DNA of 20,000 nt from an uncultured virus (IMG/VR IMGVR_UViG_3300037963_004868) (IMGVR_UViG_3300037963_004868); one strand, 5' to 3'; shown: positions 1 to 17,182, numbered from the stretch's first letter. Notes: a model not told the origin generated them from the letters alone. Numbers and translations are program-made.

Positions 1-3000
1 TCATATATTCATCATCAATCTTAAGTAAATCTCTTGGTTGAATAGAAGAAATACCACTAACATTGAAAGTTGAAAGACCTACAGGAATTGTTCCAACCCC
101 AGCAACATTATAGAATCCATTATTTTCAAGAGTGTGTGAAACTGGAGTAAATGTAATTGGTTGTTGAATAATACCATCAAGACTGATAACTGTCTTAGAT
201 AGTTTCTTAGTAAATTCCAATTTATGTGCATTACCCTCACCAGGATTAGTGAAAGTTACTCCAATTCCAGAATTTGCTCTCTCTTTGGTTGTTGCTAATC
301 GGAAACTATTTGCGTTAATGACAATTGGATATACTTTTTCTGGGAGTTGATCTACAACAACGCCAAGGTAGTTTGAAGTTTCTCCAATACCAACTTCAGA
401 TTTTCCAACCCCAACAAAAGTAGATCCTGGAGTGTAAGTCAATTCTTCTCCGGTATTGAAGAAGTGGTTATTAATTGTAAAAATACCTGTTACTGGATTA
501 AGAACATTTGTATTGGATGGATCAAAAACTTTTTCATAGATAGGAATACCCTCATGATTTAGATCAAATGAAGTTCTATTTGCTCTAAATCCATTTAAAG
601 AATCAAAAGAGGAAAGGAATAAATTTTGCTCAAGTGAATTATACTTCAGAGTATTTGGTATATTGTCAAAATCACTTATAGTGTAGAATACTTCGTTAAA
701 TGATTGAGTTGTATAGTTTGTAGAAATATCATCTGGATAGAAATTAACAAAGAAATTGTTGCCTACAATCTTAGCACCGAATGAACCCAATCCTGCAGAA
801 CCGGCAGTTGCTACAAACATTCCAGGAATAACAGTAACTTCTGAACCACTGCACAAAGCAGTTACTTGATGCAGAGCTGAACTTGAACCAACAGAAACTC
901 TAACAAGTGATGAAACTGAAGATATAAGAGTTTTATCATATTCTGCAATAGTTGTAATACCTGTGTGAGTGTCAGATACACAGTCAAGTAACGCACTTCT
1001 TTCGGATGTTGGAGGTTGACTATTTTCTAAGAATCTATAAGTATCATCTGTTCCAGATTGTGTAAATTCAATAATACTTGAGCGAACATCATAGGTAGAG
1101 GTATCAATGCCAGGATTTTTAATACTAACAGTGACAATTCCTACACCATCATATATTGTGGTAACAATACCAACATTGGAAGAACTATATGAAAGAGTAT
1201 CAGAATCAAAATAGTATTCACTAAGATAAGTGTTTGTCCCATCAAAATTAACAAATGCTTCAATATTTGCAAAATCACCTTTATCAAATCTGTTAATCAT
1301 TTCAATGCTTATAAAAGCAGCATTGAAATCTGCAGAGTCAATTTGATACAATGCTTTTTCACTAGAAGCAGTTCCTACACTGGTAATGCCAGTAACGTTT
1401 GAATTGACTAAATCGATTGAACCAATTGTATGAGATCCAGTTCCACTAGAAGAATTTAAATATTTCCTCTTAAGAATTTTGATATCTAAATCAGTATCAA
1501 AAGGATCTGTTGGTGTGAAGAATAATATCTTCCTTTCATTTTGAATGTCAAGACTAAATTCTCCAAAACTTGTAGTCAATCCTGCAGAAAATGCATTATT
1601 TTTTTCAAAAAGATACGTATCAATATTTGATGTTTGAGCAATCAACTCAGAAATCTGAACATCTAAGGTATCTGGATTTACAATTTGAATTAAATATCTA
1701 ACATTTGTGTCAGCGATGTTAATCTCTTCAATTTCTATTATATTGCCTTCAAATCCTTTACTGGAAAACTTACCGCTAATATCATCATGAATAAGAACTC
1801 TGTTAGTTTTACATTCGGTATAGTTTGCTAGTTTTCTATTACCAATTCTAAGGAATTTAGATTGCTCAGCACCAAGAGAAGTTACTCTAGTATCATCATC
1901 AACTGCTATATCAAAATTATTGATTGTCCAAACTTTAGATTCATCAATAATATCAAGAACAGCTACTGCCGTAGTAGATCCTGACAATTCAGATGCACTA
2001 TCTACTGATGATGTAATACCAACATCAGCAAAATTTTTCATGCCTGCAGGATGAACAATAGAGTTCAATGGACCAGACATTACTGACCAAGGTATTGGAC
2101 TCTTGACAGAATATGAAAGATTCTGATAATAATCATTATCGGGAGTTACTTGATAGTCTTCACTTAATTTACCCTTATCATCTTTCCATCCAAATTCCTT
2201 TTTAGAAGAATAATTAATATTAAACTTAGCTCTATCTTTGCCAATTGATATAATTTCGGCAATAGTTCCGGTAATTTTACCTTTAATTTTATCTCCAGAT
2301 TTGAACTCTTGAGGTCCAACTGTTTTAATAAAGTCTGGTCTTACTAAAGAAACAACTGCTTTAGTCTCTACAAAACCAGAACCACTGTTAACAAATAAAC
2401 CTTCATTTAGTGTAAATGATGATCTAGATTGAATAACTTCAATGTCTGGATAATCTTTTTTGTTTATAATAGTGGCATATCCAGATTGACTAGTCTTTGC
2501 AATACCAGGATTAGTTGTCAAACCAACACCATCTTCATCCACAAGTGAAAATGTAAGTTGCGCTGGATTAGAGTTAACAAAACTATCAACTTTGAAGAAT
2601 CTATAGTTATAATTTTCAGAATTATACCCTTGACCATTAGTTCCAATTAATTCAATACCTTCAACAAAAATTTGATCACCATCTGCAAAAAGTGATGTAG
2701 TAAATCCTAAAATAGGTGTCTTCAATGTGCAAGTCGCAACACCACTAGAACCAGAAACAATAGAACTAATTCCAACTCCATTTGAATTGTTTATTGCAAC
2801 CACTCTATGAGGTTCCGATTCCATACCAAGAATTGGTGCAATTTGTTTAATATCAGAAATTGCTGTATTTGGTATAATTGGTAATAAAGAAGAGTTATCT
2901 ACAACAAAGTTATTTGTTTGATTCCACAATAAAAGATTTGGCGGTGTAATATATTTAAATCCACCACTAATGATATTAAATTCAGAAATAGTATCTAAAT

Positions 3001-6000
3001 TATCAATATTAAGTTTTGTAGGAAGTGCCGCTTCTGGTCTCAATGTTTTATCTGATGGATATCCGTATCCAAGATTCTCAATTCTAATTTTATTAAGTTT
3101 ACCTACTGACGTTGAAATTGCTACTAAATTAGCATTTATACCATTTTTAGAAGAAACATCTGTAAACTTTGGTAATTTTTTATAATTAAATCCAGAAGAT
3201 AAAATTTTAACCGATCCAATAGAACTTCTTGCAGTATTTGATTTAGTTTTATATGTCGCTTCATCACATTCTTCTCTAACATTATATTTTAATACTGATG
3301 GTAATCTATATGGAGAAATTTTAAAACTTGTTGAAGTTACACCAGTAATATTATATGTTCCATTATATTCACTCTTTTCATAATTAATTTCTGAATAATT
3401 TTTAACATCAATATCTGCAGTACTAATATATCCTGCTTTTTCTACTGCATAGAAAAGTTTTGATGGAATATTTTCCGAGTACCTTAAGGTTATAGATGCA
3501 GTTCCAACTCCAGAAACACCAATATTTTCAACATTAAAATTGGTGTCATCATATGAAGTTATAAACTCATTTTCAAAATTTTCATCATAGAAAATCTTAA
3601 AATTATATTCAGTCAGAGAAGGATCTCCTAAAAGGAATTGAATATCAGAATTTCTAATAACATCAATCTTTGGATTTACTTTAGCAAAACTATGAATACT
3701 TGCACCTGTTCCAACAATATTAACTACTTTTTCTGTTTTTGGATTTGATTCATATAAAGTTTCTGCAAGTCTAAATGTGTTTCTACCGTCTCTGATAGTA
3801 TAATATAAACCTGTAGTTAATCCTGATGCAACTTCTATACTCTCATAATAAACTTTTTCGCCAGTTTCAAATCCGTGATTGGTTAGAGTAATTGTATTTG
3901 ATGCTATATTGATAGCATCAGAATTGATGCCAATAGGATTGATTAATAATGATTTTGTATCTTCTTTGAATACTACAGTTGCTGCGGCAGTTGTTCCAAC
4001 TCCAACAATAGTATTTGGTTTTACATCAAGAGTAATTACATCATTATTTCTCAATCCATGTGTTGAAGAAGTACTAACAGTAGTGATAAGTCTATCAACA
4101 TCGCCAGTAATTTGTGTTGGATTATTTTTAAGTAAGTATTCTGCATTATTCGATCCACCACTACGGAAATAAAGTCCATCGGTAAATGTTGAAAGACCTA
4201 CTGTGGTAGTCAGTCCAATATAATTTTGACCCTTATTGATTGCATATACAGTTGCTACAGTTGCTCTATTTTCTGGTAGATTAAACTGAGTTGAATCTGA
4301 CTCGTCTGAAACAATGAGAACATCAGCGGCAGTAACAGCACTATCATTCATGCTGAAACTAAGTTCTTCACCAGTCTTAAATCCATGATTAGGTACATAG
4401 ATTGTTCTAGTTGGAATTTTAACCAGGTTATCTACACCACCAATAGTGATAGTTTTTTCAATAGCACCATTAGTAGTGGTTCCAAATCCAACTGCATTAT
4501 TCGCATTAAAATAAACTAATTTAGAACGCGACGATTTAAAAGATGGAGTTTTTGCTTGAATTTTAATTCTATCTGGAATTAAATTAACTTCACTACTCAG
4601 AGTATGAGCAACACCAGCGTTTCCAAATCTCTTAACTTTTATAGTGCCATTATTGTAGTTGTTTAAAACTCTTACAGTTTCATCAGTTATAATACTGCCA
4701 TCATCAGAGTGAATGACAATAGTACTACCAATGGAAATATTTGCCAATTGATCAATAAAAATATCTTCAGTTATACCACCATTTGTGGTATAAGAACTCA
4801 TTGTTGCTGCAAGACTAATAGTATCTGAAGAAATACCTGCTTTATGCGTACCTTTTAAATTTGCAATAGATGTTGTCAATCCACTGATAAGAATATTTTC
4901 ATTATTATTGACATCAAATCCATTTTCAAAATATGCAGATACTTGGAATTGACTGTCTCTAACAAAAACTGAATTTGCGTATTGATCTAAGTCTGTATCA
5001 ATTTCTGTAATATTTTTACCAATGAGTTCAGATACTTCAACCGATAGTCCGGACCCACCAGTTTCAGTTTGATCAAAATTGACTATATCACCTACCTGAT
5101 AATCTTTACCACCAGAAAAAATATCAATTTTTTCTACAGAACCTCTAGTGACAGAGGTAACAAAAGTTTTTTGTGCAAAAGTTTCATACCCCTCATCAAT
5201 AAAATCATAATCTGCGTTTTCACTAGCGATTTTATATGGGAATACATTTCTAACTAGATTTGAATTGTTAAAGTCAAATGTCTGATCTAAGTATAAATTA
5301 TCTTGATCAAGTTTTGATTTAAATGTATTTCCAACAAAATATGGATAAAGTGGAACAAGTTTGTTTACGACTAAACTTGTTGTTACACCTGCAAAATATG
5401 CATAAATTCCATTTGGAAACTCTGGAGTTTTGCAAAATCTTCCATTATGAACATCTAAATCTCCATTATTATCGAACTTATAATCTTCAATGAAATATCC
5501 CGGTGCAAATATAGATGTGCTTGGTCTATCAAAAACAGAATTTGAATCTAAAGAATATCCAGGAGTAAGTAAAGTGGGACCAGACTGAACATTATCAGCA
5601 TCTTTGTATCCATATGGTCCATAGATTGGATTGCCATCATATGCCCAACCAATAATTTTAGAGTGTTCGCTGTTTATTTTATCATCAAAAACACCTGCCA
5701 AATCTTCAGAATATCCCAAAATAGAATATTCTAATCCATCTTCTGTATTATTTTCTTTTAAAATTCCAAATATTTTTTGATTTTTGAGAATAGAACTTTC
5801 AGCGTATCTTTCCGCATCATTTACAGAAAGACTTCTAATCTTTGTATTGAAAATTGCACCAGAACCTCTTGGTTTTACTCTGATAGTTGTGCTATCTGGA
5901 TTATAACCAATACCTTCATTGATAACGATTACATCATTAATTTTCCCATTAACAATTACTGGTCTTAAAATTGCACCAGAACCAACGTTAAATTCATCTT

Positions 6001-9000
6001 CAACAATTAACTCTGGAGTAGAAAAATATTCTTTTCCAGAACCAAGTACTTGTACTTCAATAATTCTACCATTTGATATTATTGGATTAAGTTGTGCAAG
6101 TTTTCCATTCTTTATACTAACAATAGGTTGTTTCTGTAAATTCAATACAGTCGAACCATATCCAGCACCAGATTCATACATGTAAGCATCTACAATTGGT
6201 CCTGTAATAATTGGTGTAAAATTAAGATTACCAGTTAATGTTGAACCAAAAGAAACTGTTGCAGTTACTGTAATTGGTGGATATTGGAATACATGATATC
6301 CAGAACCAATACCAGATATTTCTGTATATCTAGATCTTGTTAAATCATTAGTGAGAGTTGCTCCTGCACCAACGTTTATTAATCTAAAATTATCATCATC
6401 AAGTTTTTGAATTGAATATTGAACGTTTGTTGAAAGTCCATCAATTAATTGATTACCCTCAGTTGTTTCTTCTGTAGAATATTCAACAATATCACCATTG
6501 TTAAATCCATGATTTTTAAAAGTAAATCTATCATACTGGGTGGATATTCCGGAGGATTTTATTCTTAACTTCCTGTGTTGATATCCAGAACCTGGTTCTA
6601 TGACTTTTACTTTTTTCAGAGTTGGTGTAGGAATAGTTCTGAACTGGTGTATACCACTTTCTGTAGTTGCTGTGCTAAATCCAATTGTATTAATACCTGA
6701 AGAGGCATCTGAGATATTATTAAAAAGTTTAATTGTTGAAGTGTTTACTATTCTAACAAAGTATTCATCTCCAGATACAAGTCTATTATCAAGACTGTTT
6801 GAAGGATCTTGAAAATCTCCGATACCAATTTCATTATTTCCATTTGAATTGTAGGATACTTTTTGAAATTGTGATAAATTATGTGGTTTGAGGAAGGTTA
6901 TTGTTTCATCATTACTATCAATACCACCACCTAATTGGAGTGCTCTACTATCAAACTCCAATGTTCTGAATCTATCTCCAATGATAGGTTCTAAAATACA
7001 TCCACTGCCATTCGCACCTTGTAACGTTATTGCAGAAATTCCATCGATATCAAAGTCCTGTGGGTCAATTAAAACTTCAGAAACCGAACCAGAAATAATT
7101 GGTTCTACAAGAGCAGATGAACCTACACCAGTAGTAATTCTCAACTGTGGTGGATTAATCATATCATAATTCATACCACCATTAAAAACTTCAAAATCTG
7201 TCAACGGTCCATAATAAATTTTATCATTGGACTTTGGACTTAAAATTTGTACACCATCTATTAATTGTCCAATATGTAAAGTTCCTCTGTCTGAACTATC
7301 CGAGTTTGTAATTACTTTATTGAGGGGATATTTTCTCAGTATTGGTGATGGTAAAATTTTTCTAGATTTCTGAGTTATTAATGTAAATCTATGTGTTGCT
7401 GCAGTATCTAAATTTGGACTAAACTCAATAAAATCAGTTCCAGATGATAATAAAGAACTTGAAATGTAAAGTCTAATTTTATTGGGTTGAATTACATCAA
7501 CAATATATGATTCTCCAGACTTAAGACCTTTAAGCGGTTTATCTGAAGTATATCTAACTCTATCACCATCAATAAATTTTATGGTAGATGAAAATTTTAT
7601 TATTGAATAGGATTTACTAAAATCACTGTATCCTCCAAAATTATCCACTGTACCATCTGAAAGTTCATATTCAATCAAAGAATCTTCAATTTCATATTCA
7701 GGTAAAGAAAGTGATGCAACATATCCAAATGTTGAATTGTCATCACAATATACATTTTGAATATTGGCAAAATACTTATCGTTCCCTAAAACTAAGTCAA
7801 CATTAGAGCTTGTAACTTTTTCAATTTTTCTTCTAATACTATACTCAACGAGAGGGTTTGGATTAAAAGAAGTGTCTATATTACTAACTATAACCTGATT
7901 AAGTGTAGTATTAATTGATGAAATTGTGGCATTACTAGCAACTACCGTTTCCGAACTACCAACTAGTATGTCAATTATATCTCCAATCTTTAAACTTGAT
8001 TTATCAATTTTGGAATATAATGTGTATGTTGAACCTTCAATCTTTTTAACATTATATCTTGAACTTGTATTGTAAATCCAGGAATTAGCAAAAATTTCTT
8101 TGTAAGAAGTATATACTTCTGGATTTTGAATTACTTCTCCAGTAGATAATATTCTAATTTCTTCTCCCTCTTCTAGAAGTGAGACATCATCAATCTCCAC
8201 AAAATTATTTAAAACACCTGTCAAACGGATGTTTACTTTTCTTTCTAAATCTCCATTACCATATCCATAAACAAATACTTCAGATCTAACTTCATCAGTT
8301 ACATTAACTGCTTCAGTAATACCAGTACATCCAAAAAATTGGTTTATACTTTTAGAAGTAAAGTTAATAGTATTATTTCCTGAAACAATAGTTCCAGAGT
8401 CATTAAAACCAATCGTAGAATCTACAGTAAGTATATCTGCACCTATTGCAGCAGATTCTATTGCTTTAGTGAATCCAGGTACAATGAAAGAATTTTCAAA
8501 ACTTGAGTTGTCATCAAATCCTACAAAAAGTTCAAGTTTATAATATGTTTTTGTGTCTCTGGTAAAAACTTCTACATTAGATACAGACGCTGTAGCGATG
8601 GGAATTGTAGAATCATCAAGAGATCTGTAAATCGCTTGACCCTCAAGTTCAAATGGATTGCCAGAAATAATTTCAGCAACAACAACTTCTCTTCTAATAT
8701 ATTCTGCACCAGATGATTTAATCAGTCGTGTTTCAAGATCTATAACATCTGCTTGAACACCATAAAGAACTTTAAACAGAATTTTTACAGATTCTGCAAT
8801 ACCTTTACTTTGATAAAAATCTTTAATTTGCCTGATGAAGTTTGCTACATCTAAATCAGAAATAAACTTTTGATTTTCAAACCCTGGAGCAAATGCAGTT
8901 TTAATTTTGCGATAAAATTCTTGTAAAAATAGTGAACTTAAATTAGATACACTACTCCCTTGAATATGAGAACTTGATTTAGTATCTGAAAAATTTACTG

Positions 9001-9430
9001 TCTGCTTGTTTACATTAGAAAAATCTTTCTCAATATTATTATTATATCCATCAATTCCAGAAAATCCTCTAATACATCCTAAAAACTCAGTATCAGTTTT
9101 TGATGTATACGTAATAATCTCATCATCAATCTTTAAAAGACCATACTCTTCTGGATAACCTTTTGTCGAAGATACTGTAATTGTGGTATCTGAAGGTTGA
9201 ATGGCAATAGAAAGAGTGGTCTTTCCAATAATAACTTCTGGAATTAAATTATCTAATTTTAAATATCTGTCAAGATTACTAATTAAATCATCAGGTGAAC
9301 CTTGACTTTCTTGCGAAATATAATATTGCTTGAGAAAATCTACCGCTTTTGGAAATTCGGCAACTAAAAATTCTGGAAGTTGACTCTCAATAATTTTATT
9401 GATTTGCAACTTTCTTTCAAAATGCGACAT
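1..9430 (-). CDS. gp7: Giant baseplate wedge initiator (gp7-like, cyanophage VrlC-type), C-terminus beyond the window edge; >3,140 aa
   Basis: ATG at 9430, 3 nt after the gp6 stop, reads MSHFERKLQINKIIESQLPEFLVAEFPKAVDFLKQYYISQE. The same frame is open at the left edge (SGISSIQPRDLLKIDDEYM). The ORF track lists no minus-strand ORF here, consistent with no internal stop. Motifs FYQSKGIAESVKILFKVLYG (~8760-8820) and DNDYYQNLSYSVKS...VHPAGMKNF (~2030-2140) are typical of this family, and gp25-gp6-gp7 synteny fits. Confidence 0.88.
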   Translation of the reverse strand, partial: MSHFERKLQINKIIESQLPEFLVAEFPKAVDFLKQYYISQESQGSPDDLISNLDRYLKLDNLIPEVIIGKTTLSIAIQPSDTTITVSSTKGYPEEYGLLKIDDEIITYTSKTDTEFLGCIRGFSGIDGYNNNIEKDFSNVNKQTVNFSDTKSSSHIQGSSVSNLSSLFLQEFYRKIKTAFAPGFENQKFISDLDVANFIRQIKDFYQSKGIAESVKILFKVLYGVQADVIDLETRLIKSSGAEYIRREVVVAEIISGNPFELEGQAIYRSLDDSTIPIATASVSNVEVFTRDTKTYYKLELFVGFDDNSSFENSFIVPGFTKAIESAAIGADILTVDSTIGFNDSGTIVSGNNTINFTSKSINQFFGCTGITEAVNVTDEVRSEVFVYGYGNGDLERKVNIRLTGVLNNFVEIDDVSLLEEGEEIRILSTGEVIQNPEVYTSYKEIFANSWIYNTSSRYNVKKIEGSTYTLYSKIDKSSLKIGDIIDILVGSSETVVASNATISSINTTLNQVIVSNIDTSFNPNPLVEYSIRRKIEKVTSSNVDLVLGNDKYFANIQNVYCDDNSTFGYVASLSLPEYEIEDSLIEYELSDGTVDNFGGYSDFSKSYSIIKFSSTIKFIDGDRVRYTSDKPLKGLKSGESYIVDVIQPNKIRLYISSSLLSSGTDFIEFSPNLDTAATHRFTLITQKSRKILPSPILRKYPLNKVITNSDSSDRGTLHIGQLIDGVQILSPKSNDKIYYGPLTDFEVFNGGMNYDMINPPQLRITTGVGSSALVEPIISGSVSEVLIDPQDFDIDGISAITLQGANGSGCILEPIIGDRFRTLEFDSRALQLGGGIDSNDETITFLKPHNLSQFQKVSYNSNGNNEIGIGDFQDPSNSLDNRLVSGDEYFVRIVNTSTIKLFNNISDASSGINTIGFSTATTESGIHQFRTIPTPTLKKVKVIEPGSGYQHRKLRIKSSGISTQYDRFTFKNHGFNNGDIVEYSTEETTEGNQLIDGLSTNVQYSIQKLDDDNFRLINVGAGATLTNDLTRSRYTEISGIGSGYHVFQYPPITVTATVSFGSTLTGNLNFTPIITGPIVDAYMYESGAGYGSTVLNLQKQPIVSIKNGKLAQLNPIISNGRIIEVQVLGSGKEYFSTPELIVEDEFNVGSGAILRPVIVNGKINDVIVINEGIGYNPDSTTIRVKPRGSGAIFNTKIRSLSVNDAERYAESSILKNQKIFGILKENNTEDGLEYSILGYSEDLAGVFDDKINSEHSKIIGWAYDGNPIYGPYGYKDADNVQSGPTLLTPGYSLDSNSVFDRPSTSIFAPGYFIEDYKFDNNGDLDVHNGRFCKTPEFPNGIYAYFAGVTTSLVVNKLVPLYPYFVGNTFKSKLDQDNLYLDQTFDFNNSNLVRNVFPYKIASENADYDFIDEGYETFAQKTFVTSVTRGSVEKIDIFSGGKDYQVGDIVNFDQTETGGSGLSVEVSELIGKNITEIDTDLDQYANSVFVRDSQFQVSAYFENGFDVNNNENILISGLTTSIANLKGTHKAGISSDTISLAATMSSYTTNGGITEDIFIDQLANISIGSTIVIHSDDGSIITDETVRVLNNYNNGTIKVKRFGNAGVAHTLSSEVNLIPDRIKIQAKTPSFKSSRSKLVYFNANNAVGFGTTTNGAIEKTITIGGVDNLVKIPTRTIYVPNHGFKTGEELSFSMNDSAVTAADVLIVSDESDSTQFNLPENRATVATVYAINKGQNYIGLTTTVGLSTFTDGLYFRSGGSNNAEYLLKNNPTQITGDVDRLITTVSTSSTHGLRNNDVITLDVKPNTIVGVGTTAAATVVFKEDTKSLLINPIGINSDAINIASNTITLTNHGFETGEKVYYESIEVASGLTTGLYYTIRDGRNTFRLAETLYESNPKTEKVVNIVGTGASIHSFAKVNPKIDVIRNSDIQFLLGDPSLTEYNFKIFYDENFENEFITSYDDTNFNVENIGVSGVGTASITLRYSENIPSKLFYAVEKAGYISTADIDVKNYSEINYEKSEYNGTYNITGVTSTSFKISPYRLPSVLKYNVREECDEATYKTKSNTARSSIGSVKILSSGFNYKKLPKFTDVSSKNGINANLVAISTSVGKLNKIRIENLGYGYPSDKTLRPEAALPTKLNIDNLDTISEFNIISGGFKYITPPNLLLWNQTNNFVVDNSSLLPIIPNTAISDIKQIAPILGMESEPHRVVAINNSNGVGISSIVSGSSGVATCTLKTPILGFTTSLFADGDQIFVEGIELIGTNGQGYNSENYNYRFFKVDSFVNSNPAQLTFSLVDEDGVGLTTNPGIAKTSQSGYATIINKKDYPDIEVIQSRSSFTLNEGLFVNSGSGFVETKAVVSLVRPDFIKTVGPQEFKSGDKIKGKITGTIAEIISIGKDRAKFNINYSSKKEFGWKDDKGKLSEDYQVTPDNDYYQNLSYSVKSPIPWSVMSGPLNSIVHPAGMKNFADVGITSSVDSASELSGSTTAVAVLDIIDESKVWTINNFDIAVDDDTRVTSLGAEQSKFLRIGNRKLANYTECKTNRVLIHDDISGKFSSKGFEGNIIEIEEINIADTNVRYLIQIVNPDTLDVQISELIAQTSNIDTYLFEKNNAFSAGLTTSFGEFSLDIQNERKILFFTPTDPFDTDLDIKILKRKYLNSSSGTGSHTIGSIDLVNSNVTGITSVGTASSEKALYQIDSADFNAAFISIEMINRFDKGDFANIEAFVNFDGTNTYLSEYYFDSDTLSYSSSNVGIVTTIYDGVGIVTVSIKNPGIDTSTYDVRSSIIEFTQSGTDDTYRFLENSQPPTSERSALLDCVSDTHTGITTIAEYDKTLISSVSSLVRVSVGSSSALHQVTALCSGSEVTVIPGMFVATAGSAGLGSFGAKIVGNNFFVNFYPDDISTNYTTQSFNEVFYTISDFDNIPNTLKYNSLEQNLFLSSFDSLNGFRANRTSFDLNHEGIPIYEKVFDPSNTNVLNPVTGIFTINNHFFNTGEELTYTPGSTFVGVGKSEVGIGETSNYLGVVVDQLPEKVYPIVINANSFRLATTKERANSGIGVTFTNPGEGNAHKLEFTKKLSKTVISLDGIIQQPITFTPVSHTLENNGFYNVAGVGTIPVGLSTFNVSGISSIQPRDLLKIDDEYM

Positions 9431-9433
9431 ATT

Positions 9434-11353
9434 TTATTTCCTCTCTAATGCTCCGTTTGAGTAACTTGAAGTATAATAATCTCTTGTGAAAGAAACGCCA
9501 GAAATATCTTCACCAGATGCAATAACATCTTTAATCATATTTATTCTACTATTGGAAACATCAAAACTAAGATATAAGTCTTTTAATCCAACAATATCAT
9601 TTGATTCTGGAAATGCCTGAATCTCAATAATATTATCTTGAAGAGAAGTTTCTACAATATTAATTGTATTTAAAATAATTTCCCCCTTCTGATAATCAAC
9701 AACTCCAGCATCTTTACTAACAACTATTGTTTCTCCATTGCCCATTTGTTTTACAATGGAAAGAATACCAGTTTTTGTAGTTTGAGGCGTATCAGTGAGA
9801 AATACTGTTGAAGAATTTCCTGCAATTTTAAATCCAGTACTCTTAATGTTTAAACCTTCTGGATTTACATGGAACCTATTACCAAAACATAATTCATACT
9901 GTGCAAATTGATTAGTAAGTGCTCTCAGGTCTCTTCTAATTTTTACTTTTGTTATATTAGAAGTAATTGAAGAGTCCACTCTATCAATCAATTGAAGCAT
10001 CTTGCTATACTTAAACCTTCCACCAAACTTATTAATATCAACATCTTGTGAATAGAGTGACAATGCATCTATTATGCTAGTTCTCAAATCATCAACATTA
10101 GAAATTTGATTGTTGTTATAATATATTGAAGAATCAATCTCAACATAAAGAACCTTAAGATCAATTATATTTTGATTGATACCTGCAATAGCATATTGTT
10201 TCAATTTATTTAAAATATTTTGTTTATCAAAATCTGAAATATATGTACCATTTTTTGGTTTGATGCTGATTTGAACAGTACCAAACTTTGGTGGACTTAA
10301 TTCTTCACCACCAACAACTGCTACAGATTCGGTAGTTGGATAGATTGATTGAATGATTGCCTCATAATCCCTTGCTGTAACCGCCCTAGACTGTGCTGCA
10401 TAGAGTCTGGGAGCAAAGTACTTAATAGAAGATACATTCTCAATATCGCCACCGTTTATCGCCTTCTGAATGGTAGTTACGTTAATTGTATCGTCTGGAA
10501 TTAATCTTTTAGGTTGATTTGACTGGGTTGTTTCGGTCTCTACAAAATTACCCTGGAAGTTAAATTGTGATGGACCGTTACCTGCCTTACCTTCAGTAAT
10601 AATATACCTTACGGTAATGATAGCATTATTCTCTAATGGTCTTCCAAAGTAACCATCACCAAACAAGAGTTCATATTTTTCATCCTGAATCTCTTGAATA
10701 AGATAGATTTCAGAATTTTTGTCTACTTCTAGTATATTATCTGCTCTACGATATTCTCTTCCAAGTCCACTATCATTAATACCCTTTACATATACTCTAA
10801 TCGTTGAAGAATCAACATTGGGGTTATCAATAATAAATCTTTGATCAGTTGATGTATTGACTAAAAACTGCCTTGAAAGTGATGAACCTTGATAAATTTT
10901 AACTGGTTTATCAGCAGTACCAAATTGTGCTTTTCCGTCAATAACCTGAGCAGTTATGTCTTCTGGGATTGAGAAGCGATAAGCTGTGTTATTAAACGCT
11001 CCAGTACACACCAGACCCGCTGTAAGGGTGATAAAACTACTGTTAGTATCAGTAGGGACAGAGAACGTTACACTCGCCGTAGCGGCAGTTTTAGAGCGTG
11101 GTACATAACCAATATTTCTAGCAAGAGAAACAACATTCTCACGTACTGTTGCTGCGTCTAAAAATGATTCATTTACGACAAGATTAGCATTGAACGCATT
11201 AATATACGTATTATATGCTAAAGTATCAATCAAGACAGAAAAATTAGACCCTTCAAAGTCAAAATCTGTGAAATTTGAATTTGCACGAAGATAATCTTTG
11301 ATTTGAGTCTTGATTTGATCGAAATCAAGATTAGTAAACTGTGTAAAAGGCAT
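9434..11353 (-). CDS. gp6: Baseplate wedge subunit gp6
   Basis: 639 aa with LDFDQIKTQIKDYLR...FTDFDFEGSNFSVLIDTLAYNT, SLARNIGYVPRS, YELLFGDGYFG and RAVTARDYEAII, all characteristic of T4 gp6. Confidence 0.95.
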   Translation of the reverse strand: MPFTQFTNLDFDQIKTQIKDYLRANSNFTDFDFEGSNFSVLIDTLAYNTYINAFNANLVVNESFLDAATVRENVVSLARNIGYVPRSKTAATASVTFSVPTDTNSSFITLTAGLVCTGAFNNTAYRFSIPEDITAQVIDGKAQFGTADKPVKIYQGSSLSRQFLVNTSTDQRFIIDNPNVDSSTIRVYVKGINDSGLGREYRRADNILEVDKNSEIYLIQEIQDEKYELLFGDGYFGRPLENNAIITVRYIITEGKAGNGPSQFNFQGNFVETETTQSNQPKRLIPDDTINVTTIQKAINGGDIENVSSIKYFAPRLYAAQSRAVTARDYEAIIQSIYPTTESVAVVGGEELSPPKFGTVQISIKPKNGTYISDFDKQNILNKLKQYAIAGINQNIIDLKVLYVEIDSSIYYNNNQISNVDDLRTSIIDALSLYSQDVDINKFGGRFKYSKMLQLIDRVDSSITSNITKVKIRRDLRALTNQFAQYELCFGNRFHVNPEGLNIKSTGFKIAGNSSTVFLTDTPQTTKTGILSIVKQMGNGETIVVSKDAGVVDYQKGEIILNTINIVETSLQDNIIEIQAFPESNDIVGLKDLYLSFDVSNSRINMIKDVIASGEDISGVSFTRDYYTSSYSNGALERK

Positions 11354-11356
11354 ATT

Positions 11357-11758
11357 TTACCTTGTCGATTCTAATATGAATGAAAACTGTTGTGATGGGA
11401 GGTCTTGTCCCACGATGTCAAAGAAGACTATGACATCAAAACTGTTATCATCAGGTCTTGGGTCCACTTGAACACGAGTATTTTCTACTCTATCTTCATA
11501 AAAATTGATTGTATTCAATATTTGAACACGAATTGCACTTGCAGTACCGACATCAACAAAGTCAAAAAGACTTTTACGCACATCGGAACCCAATTTGGAG
11601 TTAAAAAACCTTTCAGTTGGAATGGTTTCAACTAAATTACGAATAGATCTGATGATTGAACGCTCATTTATCAATACAGGAAGATCCTTCGTCACCGGAT
11701 GTGGGTCAAATGAAAAACTAATATCCTTAAAAGCGCGAGAAACCCTCTTAGTAGGCAT
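11357..11758 (-). CDS. gp25: Baseplate wedge subunit gp25 (GPW/gp25 family)
   Basis: 133 aa with FKDISFSF..HPVTKD, SIRNLVET..ERFF...GSDVRKSLFD and YEDRV; lies directly upstream of gp6. Confidence 0.93.
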   Translation of the reverse strand: MPTKRVSRAFKDISFSFDPHPVTKDLPVLINERSIIRSIRNLVETIPTERFFNSKLGSDVRKSLFDFVDVGTASAIRVQILNTINFYEDRVENTRVQVDPRPDDNSFDVIVFFDIVGQDLPSQQFSFILESTR

Positions 11759-13989: not shown

Positions 13990-14178
13990 CTAGCATTCGG
14001 TTATTACGATGCTATCCTTATCTACCTCCATATTAATCTCTGTACCCTCATACCACCCAAACTCAGATATAATCCATTCAGGTATCTTCATAACATATTC
14101 ACCAGTTACAGGATCAACCTCTACATTGGTAAAATTTTCTCCGGGATTTTTTTGCATATGATGTATTTCGTTTTCCAT
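13990..14178 (-). CDS. AbrB/MazE/SpoVT-fold small DNA-binding protein (start may be 14157)
   Basis: GEYVMKIPEWIISEFGWYEGTEINMEVDKDSIVI fits the swapped-hairpin pattern IP..(l)...(l)g...G..v.(l).v....i.i. Confidence 0.7.
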   Translation of the reverse strand: MENEIHHMQKNPGENFTNVEVDPVTGEYVMKIPEWIISEFGWYEGTEINMEVDKDSIVITEC

Positions 14179-14278
14179 TCTTGGTTTATATAGAAAAGTG
14201 AAGAGTTATACAAAGACCTCGCAAAAGCAAGACTTTATAGATTAATGGTACCTAGTGGTTTTATATACGGGGCGCGGC

Positions 14279-14305
14279 GGCACCCCCGACGGCGGGGGCA
14301 CTGCC
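14279..14305. other. Strong GC hairpin at the island boundary
   Basis: GGCA-CCCCCG-acgg-CGGGGG-cac-TGCC; no U-tract on either side. Confidence 0.6.
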
Positions 14306-14326
14306 TATCACGCACTAACGCTGCTG

Positions 14327-14530
14327 TCAAGCGACCGTGTGCCAGTTGTCATTCTGCCACCAGGCGGCGTCGTGATATGCTACCCAGAACTCATGCCACA
14401 GTTGCTTACTGTCTGCGATGTTAAGTTCTGTCATCTCCGACACCCAATCATAGGCAAGGTCCAGGGATGCAGTGTTATCAGCAACAAAGGCGGGCAGTTG
14501 CAGGAGAGCGTCGGAGAATGAGAGAGGCAT
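14327..14530 (-). CDS. Early hypothetical protein, 67 aa, acidic and Trp-rich
   Basis: ORF preceded by the cassette promoter and leader. Confidence 0.75.
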   Translation of the reverse strand: MPLSFSDALLQLPAFVADNTASLDLAYDWVSEMTELNIADSKQLWHEFWVAYHDAAWWQNDNWHTVA

Positions 14531-14615
14531 GGTCCTTGTGTGAACTGAGATAATTGTAGGCGATGGAGAGGGCAGACTGTGGATGCCTGCCCTATCTTTA
14601 ACAATCGTTCACACT
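14531..14615 (-). promoter_or_regulatory. Cassette promoter 1: -10 TACAAT, hairpin over the -35 region, upstream HLR1-like direct repeat
   Basis: -10 at 14553-14558; AGGGCAG/CTGCCCT inverted repeat; TTAACAAT-cg-TTCACACT at 14598-14615. Confidence 0.7.
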
Positions 14616-14908
14616 CCCATCAGGCGGGCGATGCGCTCACGCTTACGCAGCGGCAGGAGTCGCTTGTAAGTGATCATTTTCTGTTTGCCCATCATGTACT
14701 CATAACGGCGGACCATGCCCTGAGACGCCATCGCCTTGAGCAGGAGCGTTACCGTTGTGCGTGCTTCCTTAGGCATCCCCAGTGCCTGATTGACCTCACA
14801 GGCACGCAGTCCGCCGCGTTGCTTATCAGTGTCCATAGGGAGCGTTGAGAGCACCGCCCACTGATAGGTGGCACCGAAAGATTGGCGGCGGGTGATGGAG
14901 GTGAACAT
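14609..14908 (-). CDS. Basic 99-aa protein, probable winged helix-turn-helix
   Basis: GLRACEVNQALGMPKEARTTVTLLLKAMASQGMVRRYE...ITYK matches a helix-turn-helix plus wing pattern. Confidence 0.6.
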   Translation of the reverse strand: MFTSITRRQSFGATYQWAVLSTLPMDTDKQRGGLRACEVNQALGMPKEARTTVTLLLKAMASQGMVRRYEYMMGKQKMITYKRLLPLRKRERIARLMGV

Positions 14909-14995
14909 GGTTCGTTTGTGTGAACTGAACTAATAATAAGAGATCAGGAAGGGGAACTGTAGATGGTTCCCCTTTTTTTAACAATCCGTCACATC
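14909..14995 (-). promoter_or_regulatory. Cassette promoter 2: -10 TATTAT, hairpin over the -35 region, upstream HLR1-like direct repeat
   Basis: -10 at 14933-14938; AAGGGGAAC/GTTCCCCTT inverted repeat; TTAACAAT-cc-GTCACATC at 14978-14995; spacing identical to promoter 1. Confidence 0.72.
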
Positions 14996-15488
14996 ACCAG
15001 CACTCTGAGAAAATGAACCCATCCTGTTCGCTGTAGTCATGACGTTCCAGGTTCTCCCAAGTCTCCTGCCAGTCAACCTCTACGAATCCAGGCAGATCCA
15101 GACAGTAGCAATCAGTGACCAACTGCTCAGCGAACTCAGCGCCTGACATTTCACCCTGATAGGAGTCACTGAAGCGGTCCAGATCATCTTCTCCATAAAG
15201 TTCAATAAAGGCGCGAATTGCATCAGCAGGATAATCTTCCAGGAGTTCATTAATTTGCTCCTGATAGTCACTATCCTCTGCCTTAATTTCCACCGCTTCG
15301 TTATCATCAAGAACGCGAAGAAGAGCGCCCTTAGACTTCAATAACTCAGTGTAGAAATCGGTGAAGTTAATCTTAGTGTTAGATCCTTCTGCCGTTGAGT
15401 AACCACAAGCGATGGCAATCTCAGAGGGTTTTTTACCCTGTTCGCGCATAGCGTTGTAGGTATCCAGGAGAGCGGTGCCAGTGATCAT
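14994..15488 (-). CDS. Fusion of a cyanobacterial AbrB-like N-terminal domain and an ArdA-like acidic antirestriction (DNA-mimic) domain
   Basis: Residues 1-54 (ITGTALL...SEIAIACGYST......INFTDFYTELLKSKG) resemble the cyAbrB N-terminus; the C-terminus (AIRAFIELYG..DLDRFSDSYQGEMSGAEFAEQLV...VDWQETWENL..DY...DGFIF) resembles ArdA. Confidence 0.75.
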   Translation of the reverse strand: MITGTALLDTYNAMREQGKKPSEIAIACGYSTAEGSNTKINFTDFYTELLKSKGALLRVLDDNEAVEIKAEDSDYQEQINELLEDYPADAIRAFIELYGEDDLDRFSDSYQGEMSGAEFAEQLVTDCYCLDLPGFVEVDWQETWENLERHDYSEQDGFIFSECW

Positions 15489-15546
15489 GGTTCGTTTGTT
15501 TGAACTTGAGTTAATGGTAGCACAGGATGGGCGGAGTCAACCGCCC
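15489..15546 (-). promoter_or_regulatory. Cassette promoter 3: extended -10 TGcTACCAT with a GGGCGG/CCGCCC hairpin whose loop is TTGACT
   Basis: -10 at 15514-15519; leader AAGTTCAAACAAACGAACC-ATG is nearly identical to that of promoter 2; the TTGACT spacer is only 15 nt. Confidence 0.65.
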
Positions 15547-15557
15547 AAACCTTAAAT

Positions 15558-15845
15558 TCAATGGAAGGAATCGTAAGCGGTGTCGGGCGTCGGGTCGTAT
15601 CCGTCCTCAATCGCAGCGACAGCATCCCGTGCAGTGTCTTCTACCTTATACGCTGCCAGGATCTCCTCCAATGCCCACCCGTCCTCCAGGTCCACCGGAA
15701 GGTCATTCAGCAGTTCTACCTCATCCCAGAAGGTACGGAAACCAAAATCATCCCAGCAAGTGTCGGTGTCCAGCGCCTGGCGGTTGCGGTCGTCCGCTGC
15801 CTGTTGCGCTTCGTATTGGTCCAGGGAGTAGTTGTGAAAGTCCAT
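15558..15845 (-). CDS. Highly acidic early hypothetical protein, 95 aa
   Basis: D/E-rich ORF with upstream -10 TATCAT and the palindromic operator at 15902. Confidence 0.75.
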   Translation of the reverse strand: MDFHNYSLDQYEAQQAADDRNRQALDTDTCWDDFGFRTFWDEVELLNDLPVDLEDGWALEEILAAYKVEDTARDAVAAIEDGYDPTPDTAYDSFH

Positions 15846-15901
15846 GGGGTGGATTGCAACTAAGAGAATGATAGGTCATTTTTTATCCTATGCCGCGGCC
15901 T

Positions 15902-15924
15902 TGTGCCAGTTGGCGAACTGTCCA
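15902..15924. promoter_or_regulatory. Palindromic operator-like motif, copy A (TGTGCCAGTT-ggcg-AACTGTCCA)
   Basis: One of four spaced copies; lies between divergent -10 boxes. Confidence 0.75.
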
Positions 15925-15965
15925 AAATTGGTTGGCGGGTGGTCGTGCGGATGTATGATAGGTTC

Positions 15966-16032
15966 AAATCAAAGGAGGTGCGGGGTAGCACTGCAGACGC
16001 CAAAGGTCGTCACCTCCCCTGCCTGCCGGTAA
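15966..16032 (+). ncRNA. Candidate structured small RNA, copy 1 (67 nt)
   Basis: -10 TATGAT at 15954-15959; aligns end to end with 16868-16935; stem GTGC-GGGGTA-GCAC covaries with copy 2. Confidence 0.65.
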
Positions 16033-16116
16033 TTGTTTCAGGAATGTTAAATTTCCAGAGGGTGTCCCATGGTGTGCTAGGATAGAGGTAGACCCTCCGG
16101 TAGGATTCTTAAATGT

Positions 16117-16144
16117 AAAAAAAGGGGAGAAAATATCCCCCCTT
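16117..16144 (-). terminator. Intrinsic terminator after the 110-aa gene
   Basis: GGGGA/TCCCC stem followed on the minus strand by T7. Confidence 0.75.
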
Positions 16145-16152
16145 AAATGTTA

Positions 16153-16485
16153 TCAACCCAGGCGCATTGATGAAAAGAAAGGAACAGTGCTGATACCTTG
16201 CACTGTGTTAATGTTCACAAACCAGTCAAAGTTTTTCTGAAAAACACAATCACCATCTTCACCATGTTCTGCCAAAATAGCATTAAGGCGGGATTTTGTG
16301 GTCACTGATTGCCAACCGCCGTCAAACAATCGGATGAAAGTATCACCAACCTCAGCAATTTTGTTTCCGTGGAGATGAACAGTAGAGACGCCAGATTCTT
16401 CGTCAAAATGAACAGAAGTGTTGCCAGATTGCCAGTTCTGATTGTTCTGAATGGCGGCGTTCATCAGGGATTCAATCTTACGCAT
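16153..16485 (-). CDS. Phage early protein, 110 aa (MRKIESLMNAAI...LHGNKIA...DGGWQSVTTKSRLNAIL)
   Basis: The ATG at 16485 follows promoter TGGCAC-N17-TATCTT and a typical leader; LHGN.IA and GW...TTK.RLNA motifs recur in phage early proteins. The track start at 16542 lies inside the promoter. Confidence 0.85.
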   Translation of the reverse strand: MRKIESLMNAAIQNNQNWQSGNTSVHFDEESGVSTVHLHGNKIAEVGDTFIRLFDGGWQSVTTKSRLNAILAEHGEDGDCVFQKNFDWFVNINTVQGISTVPFFSSMRLG

Positions 16486-16512
16486 GGTTGGGTGCCTTTG
16501 TTTGACTCTTTT

Positions 16513-16570
16513 AAGATACAGGAGGGAGCGGGTCTGTGCCACTCCCTTGTGCCACTAGGTTGACTGTCCT
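16513..16570 (-). promoter_or_regulatory. Promoter TGGCAC-N17-TATCTT plus operator copy B (16548-16570)
   Basis: Counted 17-nt spacer; TGTGCCACTA-ggtt-GACTGTCCT directly upstream. Confidence 0.7.
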
Positions 16571-16745
16571 ATGCCAGACGCTGCCAACCTTGTCCGGCAT
16601 TCTGTCGCCATTCTGCCCTAGCATCTTCCCGCGTCATCATCAGCATTTGAGAATCAGCGATCACCAGAACCTGATCGCCAATCGGTGTGAATGAAACCGT
16701 CTCCCCAAAATACGGGGCGTTGGGGTGTTGCTGAATGTAGGTCAT
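16569..16745 (-). CDS. Early hypothetical protein, 58 aa (MTYIQQHPNAPYFGETV...AREWRQNAGQGWQRLA-like end)
   Basis: The ATG at 16745 follows promoter TGGCAC-N17-CATCAT; the longer track version runs through regulatory DNA. Confidence 0.72.
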   Translation of the reverse strand: MTYIQQHPNAPYFGETVSFTPIGDQVLVIADSQMLMMTREDARAEWRQNAGQGWQRLA

Positions 16746-16769
16746 CGGGTTGCGGTGTGACTTGACACA

Positions 16770-16827
16770 ATGATGCCCCAAAATCAGACCCTGTGCCACC
16801 AAAGTAGACAGTTCAGAAAGTGGCACA
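16770..16827 (-). promoter_or_regulatory. Promoter TGGCAC-N17-CATCAT plus inverted operator copy C (16804-16827)
   Basis: Counted 17-nt spacer; GTAGACAGTT-caga-AAGTGGCACA. Confidence 0.7.
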
Positions 16828-16867
16828 GCAACCTCCCATAGTGTCCCAATCCCTGTTATCTTATAGG

Positions 16868-16935
16868 AAATCAGAGGAGCGGTGGGGTAACCGTGCGGAC
16901 GACAATACATCGCCACCGAACCTGCCGTCCGGTAA
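16868..16935 (+). ncRNA. Candidate structured small RNA, copy 2 (68 nt)
   Basis: Extended -10 TGtTATCTT at 16854-16862; stem CGGT-GGGGTA-ACCG; paralogous to 15966-16032. Confidence 0.65.
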
Positions 16936-16939
16936 ACAT

Positions 16940-16962
16940 AAAAAAAACCCCTGTCAAGGGGT
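16940..16962 (-). terminator. Intrinsic terminator with TTGACA as its loop
   Basis: Minus strand reads ACCCC-TTGACA-GGGGT then a T-tract. Confidence 0.7.
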
Positions 16963-16964
16963 CG

Positions 16965-16988
16965 TGTGCCAGTTTAGAAAGTGTCCAC
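16965..16988. promoter_or_regulatory. Operator-like motif, copy D (TGTGCCAGTT-taga-AAGTGTCCAC)
   Basis: Best match to the four-copy consensus. Confidence 0.75.
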
Positions 16989-16993
16989 TGTTC

Positions 16994-17182
16994 TCACCAA
17001 ACAGGTTCAATCTCCTTTACTGTGGCATCGACACATTCATCACCTTCTAATCCCAGAACCTCATTCCAGTCTAGGTCTTCTAGGGTTAGATCATCATAAC
17101 ACTCTACATCAAGTGTAACACGGATGGTACGCTTTGTGTGTGTAAGCATGTGTCTAGTGCGTGTGTGCATGTATTGTATCAC
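16994..17182 (-). CDS. Small acidic hypothetical protein (start uncertain: 17182, 17170 or 17149)
   Basis: KRTIRVTLDVECYDDL...DWNEVLGLEGDE; GTGA overlap with the upstream stop. Confidence 0.7.
   Translation of the reverse strand: MIQYMHTRTRHMLTHTKRTIRVTLDVECYDDLTLEDLDWNEVLGLEGDECVDATVKEIEPVW

Follow-up and report, generated by a model that had tools for sequence, protein, structure and literature searches.

A family of candidate small RNAs with a covarying GGGGUA hairpin in T4-like cyanophages

Why does a virus genome keep two closely similar short units that point against every gene around them? This question is raised by a 20,000-nucleotide stretch of DNA from an uncultured virus (IMG/VR IMGVR_UViG_3300037963_004868), here called the window, in which an earlier note, made from the sequence alone, had marked two paralogous plus-strand units of about 67 nucleotides (nt) as independently promoted, structured small RNAs of a cyanophage. 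Our analysis supports this core idea by the discovery of homologues, by covariation and by the lack of any Rfam match: With a probability of about 60%, the units belong to a family of functional plus-strand phage small RNAs that act in trans, are driven by the host polymerase, and occur in T4-like cyanophages (Kyanoviridae and their uncultured relatives). The family is a previously undescribed one of a known kind, the phage-encoded small RNA, and lies outside every Rfam family.

The conserved core of copy 1 covers positions 15966..16032 and that of copy 2 positions 16868..16935, both on the plus strand and both with the sequences quoted in the earlier note. They are matched by our covariance model R1, which was built from relatives, at 15963-16036 (75.2 bits, E 2.5e-16) and at 16865-16939 (77.4 bits, E 6.9e-17), respectively, and these are the sole R1 matches in the window, the next best reaching 12.6 bits. 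Counted on the family alignment, 50 of 68 aligned positions are identical between the copies. The pattern GGGGTA-N4-TGCRGACG is present twice (15982-15999 and 16884-16901) versus 0.03 expected occurrences, and CCTGCC-N2-CCGGTAA is likewise present twice (16018-16032 and 16921-16935) versus 0.09 expected. The resemblance is far beyond chance, since at least 87 distinct viral sequences contain the unit. Each copy contains a hairpin, P1, with a closing G.U pair: in copy 1 (15977..15992, plus strand), the stem GTGC/GCAC encloses the loop GGGGTA (15982-15987), and in copy 2 (16879..16894, plus strand), the stem CGGT/ACCG encloses the same loop (16884-16889). Three of the four stem pairs differ between the copies, yet all of them pair, and the flanking G and T are found in both. 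There is no tandem array in the window, and a near-identical 54-kilobase (kb) virus record (G001) has both copies as well.

The family was collected from IMG/VR with three patterns. The first one, based on the 3' part, returned 17 loci, i. e. 14 clear relatives and three stretches of unrelated coding DNA. The second one, covering the hairpin region with a free stem, gave at least 120 matches, 93 of those listed being unique, and the third one, the 3' half alone with the hairpin left wholly free, added loop variants and more wobble pairs. When the viral loci were pooled and membership was judged by the flanks only, 92 unique sequences were obtained; five unrelated-looking ones with a loop other than nnGGTn were removed, leaving 87. 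Thus, the family has at least 87 distinct members in IMG/VR, which range from marine metagenomes to freshwater phages. R1 detects two copies each in G001, in a further record (G003) and in the isolate Synechococcus phage S-SRM01 (NC_070963.1, 88581-88657 and 90133-90207, on the minus strand of the record), one copy each in another record (G002) and in DSL-LC03, and none in G004, a record that had entered the set via a chance pattern match (L020). S-SRM01 and DSL-LC03, a metagenome-assembled genome according to its published description (PMC10611076), are the annotated carriers, and they were also the only matches when three queries were compared with 50,697 phage records in a megablast-type search; copy 2 of the window found no match among these records. 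The earlier note had called the family multi-copy. This holds for the window with its two copies, but records with the family contain just one or two copies per genome of about 175-240 kb, and paired copies are spaced by 0.9-1.8 kb. In bacterial and archaeal genomes, no family member was present among the 121 pattern matches listed, and with stricter filters R1 found none in 151 evenly sampled cyanobacterial genomes and none in two named ones. Among the collections searched, the family is restricted to viruses.

The earlier note had been unable to match the units to a known motif, and our searches agree: None of the 4227 models of Rfam 15 matched the window at the gathering score, and at E <=10 the only matches in five relatives were three of chance level, none of them on the element. 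ARAGORN found no transfer RNA or transfer-messenger RNA gene in the window. No description of the family was found in the literature covered, which lay outside subscription journals, and a word search of the text of the S-SRM01 paper yielded one unrelated passage and no mention of the family.

The data support the hairpin. First, its stem covaries. The structural alignment comprises 86 sequences, i. e. the two window copies and 84 loci, with one near-duplicate of copy 2 (L006) omitted. In this alignment, helix 1, which consists of the closing pair and the four-base-pair stem, is paired in 430 of 430 cells, and double-sided changes are seen at four of its five pairs (76 cells); the closing pair is G.U in 80 of the 86 sequences and G-C in six. 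With a covariation score of 0.228, the helix exceeds the shuffled controls (0.066; 0 of 500 reach the observed value) and the controls with slid partners (at most 0.056). There are 15 stem variants among the 87 members. Second, when the stem was left free in the search, 67 of the 93 matches were family-like by their downstream tail, and of these the stem has four Watson-Crick pairs in 65, one G.U pair in two and a break in none, whereas the stem is formed in 0 of the 26 unrelated matches. The covariation noticed in the two copies is overwhelming across the family. The loop hardly varies: GGGGTA is present in 73 of the 87 members, GAGGTA in five, AGGGTA in four, AGGGTC in three, and CAGGTC and AAGGTC in one each. 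RNAalifold (70 sequences) predicts this helix alone, with the closing G.U and four pairs, and only the hairpin columns stand out in a mutual-information screen for additional pairs. Over at least 60 putatively transcribed bases, the mean column identity across marine and freshwater phages is about 76%. What remains of the structure is a single short hairpin with a conserved loop and, after it, a stretch of about 40 conserved bases that are probably unpaired.

Two further elements proposed in the earlier note did not survive. A second stem, GACG/UCGyC, pairs in 79% of the cases overall, but its pair A35:N50 is formed in only 17 of 86 sequences, compensatory changes are absent, and the stem is altered in S-SRM01. 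Similarly, compensatory changes are lacking for a pseudoknot between the loop and the conserved UGCC, whose A25:U60 does not pair in 22 of 86 sequences. In single-sequence folds, the G-rich 5' part also pairs with the distant C-rich 3' part, but this pairing was rejected for lack of specific covariation: in a swap test of this duplex, the native combination gave -13.61 kcal/mol versus -13.65 kcal/mol for 3' parts swapped among members with other stems, and the native one was better in 46 of 87 cases.

Which strand folds can be judged from the wobble pairs. On the plus strand, 342 of the 348 stem cells of the 87 members are Watson-Crick pairs and six are G.U; on the minus strand, these six would be A.C. 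The closing pair is G.U in 80 members and G-C in seven. Of the 68 members with enough upstream sequence, 66 have a -10-like TAnnnT whose end is 14 or 16 nt ahead of an invariant GAG, and 25 of these 66 have a TGn extension, which would be meaningless on the minus strand. The -10 boxes named in the earlier note are indeed present. The putative promoter of copy 1 (15932..15959, plus strand) consists of TTGGCG, a 16-nt spacer and TATGAT (15954-15959); it scores 9/12 in a consensus scan, its position is kept in the family, and the core begins 6 nt after the -10 box. Copy 2 is preceded by the extended -10 element TGtTATCTT (16854..16862, plus strand) with no good -35, and the same TGnTATCTT box is found at the same distance in many relatives. 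The member in DSL-LC03 has TTGACG, 16 nt and TAGAAT. All these promoter calls are consensus matches rather than mapped starts. T4-like cyanophages use host-type sigma-70 promoters for their early genes. Taken together, the wobbles that are G.U and not A.C, the G.U or G-C closing pair, and the -10 box at a fixed position argue that the folded strand is the plus strand, just downstream of a sigma-70-type promoter.

The sequence of the unit is kept in changing surroundings. In DSL-LC03 and S-SRM01, the element lies in unannotated intergenic DNA and the flanking coding sequences are on the opposite strand, as they are in the window. Crude calling of open reading frames (ORFs) at 40 loci gave a minus-strand neighbour at the left side of 25 loci and at the right side of 29; the plus-strand calls, 12 left and nine right, were judged mostly spurious in this G+C-rich DNA. 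Clustering of the 63 minus-strand ORFs that flank the element gave 35 groups; the largest one (n=7) is Gp96-like and occurs on either side of the element.

The units are associated with an operator-like motif, M (GACA-N10-TGGCAC), which in the relatives is the palindrome GTGCCA-N10-TGGCAC. Copy 2 is flanked by M sites on both sides: one (16807..16826, plus strand) is located about 30 nt upstream of the -10 box, and the other (16966..16985, minus strand) just past the downstream terminator, the same arrangement as in relatives. An inverted site upstream of copy 1 (15903..15922, minus strand) faces the minus-strand gene 15558-15845, and further sites are found on the minus strand at 16549-16568 and, as a weaker copy, at 14339-14358. 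There are four exact occurrences in the window and six with at most one mismatch (0.65 expected), and two to seven per related phage genome, versus zero for the reversed control. In most members M precedes the -10 box by about 30 nt and occurs again past the terminator, and it also precedes minus-strand genes of the surrounding island. M is probably the site of a dimeric regulator, and the palindromic operator that the earlier note had seen fits the M sites next to the small RNA units.

At the 3' side, copy 2 adjoins the intrinsic terminator (16946..16963, minus strand) of the convergent gene 16994-17182 (minus strand), which is a possible stop for the plus-strand RNA too. About 90 nt 3' of copy 1 lies the intrinsic terminator (16122..16144, minus strand) of the gene 16153-16485, and the RNA of copy 1 may extend to this hairpin. 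An extra extended -10 box on the plus strand, TGcTAGGAT (16075-16083), is located between copy 1 and the hairpin; the box and the bases that follow it recur in several relatives in either orientation, and may mark a further short plus-strand transcript.

In the model that we infer, the RNA would be transcribed early in infection, act in trans and meet a protein partner. A host sigma-70-type promoter (TAnnnT, often with TGn, and a weak TTGnnn -35), flanked by the operator-like sites, would fire rightward against all neighbouring genes, and the transcript would start about 8-10 nt before the invariant GAG. The hairpin of five base pairs, with its G.U or G-C closing pair and four variable Watson-Crick pairs, would present a fixed RRGGUA loop and be followed by about 40 nt of conserved, largely unpaired C-rich RNA (GACG..UCGnCAC..CCUGCC) and by an A/U-rich tail that would enter the terminator hairpin of the convergent gene. 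The hairpin might then serve as the recognition site for a phage or host protein, with the unpaired 3' half being either part of the protein site or a seed for base pairing. Action in trans is suggested because the sequence of the stem is free, the loop and the single-stranded part are fixed, and the neighbours differ between phages. We lean slightly towards protein recognition rather than base pairing. It is tempting to speculate one step further: the RRGGUA hairpin and the C-rich tail might form a recognition or decoy RNA that neutralises or redirects a host or phage protein early in infection. The partner would be sought among defence nucleases, RNA-binding regulators and the RNA decay machinery, and the gene would be an operator-controlled cassette that moves with anti-defence genes from one cyanophage to another. 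This more specific proposal is a tentative one, and its probability is low.

Other known roles fit less well. An antitoxin RNA of type III (ToxI-like) or a mimic is not supported: there is no tandem array, no same-strand gene and no homologue in the cells sampled, i. e. 151 cyanobacterial genomes and the 121 bacterial pattern matches listed, both of which are samples only. A riboswitch or other cis-regulatory leader would need an ORF to control, and there is none downstream on the same strand. A small protein gene, on either strand, conflicts with a start triplet that varies and can be TAG, with a one-base indel that shifts the frame, and with stop codons that interrupt the frame in some members. 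Finally, several other likenesses (an NtcA-type site, a sigma-54-like TGGCAC, a hammerhead-like CUGAUGA, tRNA-like arms, and complementarity to the 3' end of 16S ribosomal RNA) were dropped, as the words they share are confined to subfamilies.

Several observations weigh against a functional small RNA. The only supported helix has five base pairs, and single-sequence folds are no better than those of shuffled sequences (z -0.3 to -0.9). The -35 elements are weak. A T-run followed by TATGAT or TATGTT provides a -10-like box on the minus strand, too, just upstream of the element. A downstream hairpin preceded by an A-run is present in just 27 of 66 members under a strict rule, with T-rich sequence beyond it in eight of them, and neither window copy has a U-tract past the downstream hairpin. 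The locus is present in 14 DNA sequencing runs and partly in five RNA runs; four metatranscriptome runs were examined, all as contigs that carry no information on strand or molecule ends. These contigs cover genes, elements and promoters alike, as would be possible with DNA carry-over or read-through. Since strand and molecule ends are absent and genic and intergenic DNA are covered alike, the contigs from RNA libraries speak neither for nor against expression.

Some of these contigs depart from the order of the window. One of them (run X16) joins position 15995 to 16898, thus fusing copy 1 to copy 2 with 902 nt skipped: either a one-copy (hybrid) relative exists, or the copies recombine. In other contigs, the match to the window breaks off exactly at 15966 and at 16773, where unrelated sequence takes over. 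At one IMG/VR locus (L081), a truncated promoter with the start of an element lies directly upstream of a full member that has no -10 box of its own, an arrangement that looks like the scar of recombination within the family.

The main alternative, even if it is unlikely, is a different one: The unit might comprise a promoter plus the 5' leader of a cis-antisense transcript, or act as a transcriptional interference or insulator module, directed against the convergent gene and carried in a mobile regulatory cassette of the hyperplastic region that resembles the promoter-early stem-loop (PeSL) cassettes. The X16 joint is the expected outcome of recombination between such cassettes. The RNA sequence would then matter little beyond stabilisation of the 5' end. 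Indeed, the unit always lies between small genes that share one strand and points at the 3' end and the terminator of the right-hand gene, a clear plus-strand terminator is absent in most members, the neighbouring genes are reshuffled (63 ORFs in 35 clusters), and PeSL cassettes behave in this way in other T4-type phages (PMC4122927). However, at least 60 bases are conserved at a mean column identity of about 76% while the supposed targets differ, and interference does not need an invariant loop on a covarying stem. Moreover, there are just one or two copies per genome, and PeSL promoters drive a downstream ORF on the same strand, unlike the promoters described here.

The G.U signal does not distinguish RNA from plus-strand DNA, as G.T is the best-tolerated mismatch in DNA hairpins. 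The element might thus act at the level of DNA, or as an RNA-primed site, with a single-stranded DNA hairpin or an R-loop of the G-rich transcript beside an A/T-rich tract serving replication initiation, recombination or cassette exchange. In transcription-primed origins, a promoter is followed by a G-rich stretch and an A/T-rich tract, and the succession of the same features in the element recalls these origins; the X16 joint between the two copies would also fit. We consider this improbable. Most of the A/T tract belongs to the A-run of the neighbour's terminator, and in the window the tract is short. The fixed position of the -10 box (66 of 68 members) speaks for transcription of the conserved part, and among the 63 flanking ORFs there is no consistent neighbour that encodes a nickase, transposase or integrase.

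Least probable is a function on the minus strand, as an element upstream of the promoter or in the 5' untranslated region of the downstream minus-strand gene. In its favour, all genes are on this strand, it has the -10-like box mentioned above, and the ORF 16569-16916 passes through copy 2. Against it, all six stem pairs that are not Watson-Crick would become A.C, and so would the closing pair in 80 of 87 members. The TGn extension and the TTGnnn -35 fit the plus strand only, and the next minus-strand start lies at widely differing distances. The ORF is without homologue in the 50,697 phage records, and the same frame stops within copy 1. In addition, the stem changes alter the would-be residues, and the family shows a one-base indel as well as, in some members, stops in frame.

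The virus itself can be placed by its genes. All sizeable ORFs of the window are on the minus strand, and those at 11357-11758 and 9434-11353 match the baseplate wedge proteins gp25 and gp6, respectively. Downstream of them, a giant ORF (2-9430, minus strand; at least 3143 amino acids, open at the window edge) presumably encodes a structural or fibre protein. The DNA between 15000 and 18000 matches cyanophage records exclusively (275, mainly Synechococcus phages), with the matches on the gene 16153-16485 (minus strand), which encodes the Kyanoviridae Gp96 protein (Kyano_Gp96). Judged from the gp25 and gp6 matches and the matching cyanophage records, the window is assigned to a T4-like cyanomyovirus, of which it is a portion.

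Both elements are located in an island (about 14000-17000) with a G+C content of 44-54% versus 34-38% in the rest of the genome. The island contains small minus-strand genes, one of which (14994-15488) matches anti-restriction PHROGs, and it resembles a horizontally exchanged early or accessory region. For a 99-amino-acid ORF (14609-14908), there were winged-helix matches below threshold only. As called, the ORF 16569-16916 (minus strand) runs through copy 2; a leader-like sequence before an ATG at 16745 resembles those of other island genes, and a product of 58 amino acids from this ATG seems more likely. A tblastn search with the ORF found no homologue in the 50,697 phage records. In addition, an 87-nt intergenic cassette is repeated with 71% identity (14536-14622 and 14916-15002). 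Its parts are a terminator hairpin, a -10-like stretch rich in A/T, and a conserved leader up to the start codon, and this leader recurs at 92% (14901-14926 and 15481-15506). These cassettes are on the gene strand, and they fit the published PeSL arrangement better than the small RNA units do.

The family shares its fast-evolving region with host-takeover and anti-restriction-like genes, and has operator-like sites on either side. Few non-coding RNAs are known from cyanophages, and none of those named in the accessible parts of PMC9964418 and PMC12197685 is an independently promoted, virus-only small RNA of such architecture. With R1, a feature that is unannotated in deposited genomes can now be annotated. 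As the carrier S-SRM01 is an isolate with a culturable host, the family provides a testable entry to RNA-level control in the infection of picocyanobacteria. If the RNA were indeed a decoy, this would be a new RNA-based principle of host takeover or counter-defence in viruses that are among the most abundant in the ocean.

How does the family compare to known systems? The binding sites of phage N proteins (boxB) and coat-protein operators, which resemble the new hairpin in their working only, have a short, always-paired stem of free sequence and an invariant loop near the 5' end of the transcript, as is the case here. In contrast to them, the new family has no same-strand operon to antiterminate, no start codon to occlude and an unrelated loop. 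Among cyanophages, the non-coding RNAs CfrI, PhotoRC-II, wcaG, manA, glnA and abiF are named in the accessible parts of PMC9964418 (2023) and PMC12197685 (a 2025 review). Like the new family, they lie in the non-coding DNA of T4-like cyanomyoviruses; unlike the cis-regulatory motifs among them, the new family is not found upstream of a same-strand gene, and unlike CfrI it is not located at psbA. The small RNAs OOP of phage lambda and sar of P22, so far as described in the accessible part of PMC12197685, share the size of about 70-80 nt, a promoter of their own and the orientation opposite to the adjacent gene. They act via perfect complementarity to the gene that they overlap, and their sequence tracks this gene, whereas the new family keeps its own sequence while the neighbours change and needs no overlap with a coding region.

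The closest parallel in arrangement is provided by the PeSL cassettes from the hyperplastic regions of T4-type phages (Comeau 2014, PMC4122927, accessible part). Both are conserved non-coding modules of promoter and terminator among small variable ORFs, and both show signs of recombination between copies. In a PeSL, the stem-loop immediately precedes a promoter from which the following same-strand ORF is transcribed, and a genome contains many copies. The elements of the window do lie between small variable ORFs of a hyperplastic region. However, their promoter points in the opposite way and faces a terminator hairpin instead of a Shine-Dalgarno sequence and the start of a same-strand gene, it is followed by about 67 conserved bases with a covarying hairpin, and there are two copies in the window and one or two per carrier record rather than many. 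Because three of the four defining features fail, the family is not PeSL in the defined sense. Among the features of a generic trans-acting small RNA, it has a putative promoter of its own at a fixed distance (66 of 68 members) and a sequence that is conserved independently of the neighbours.

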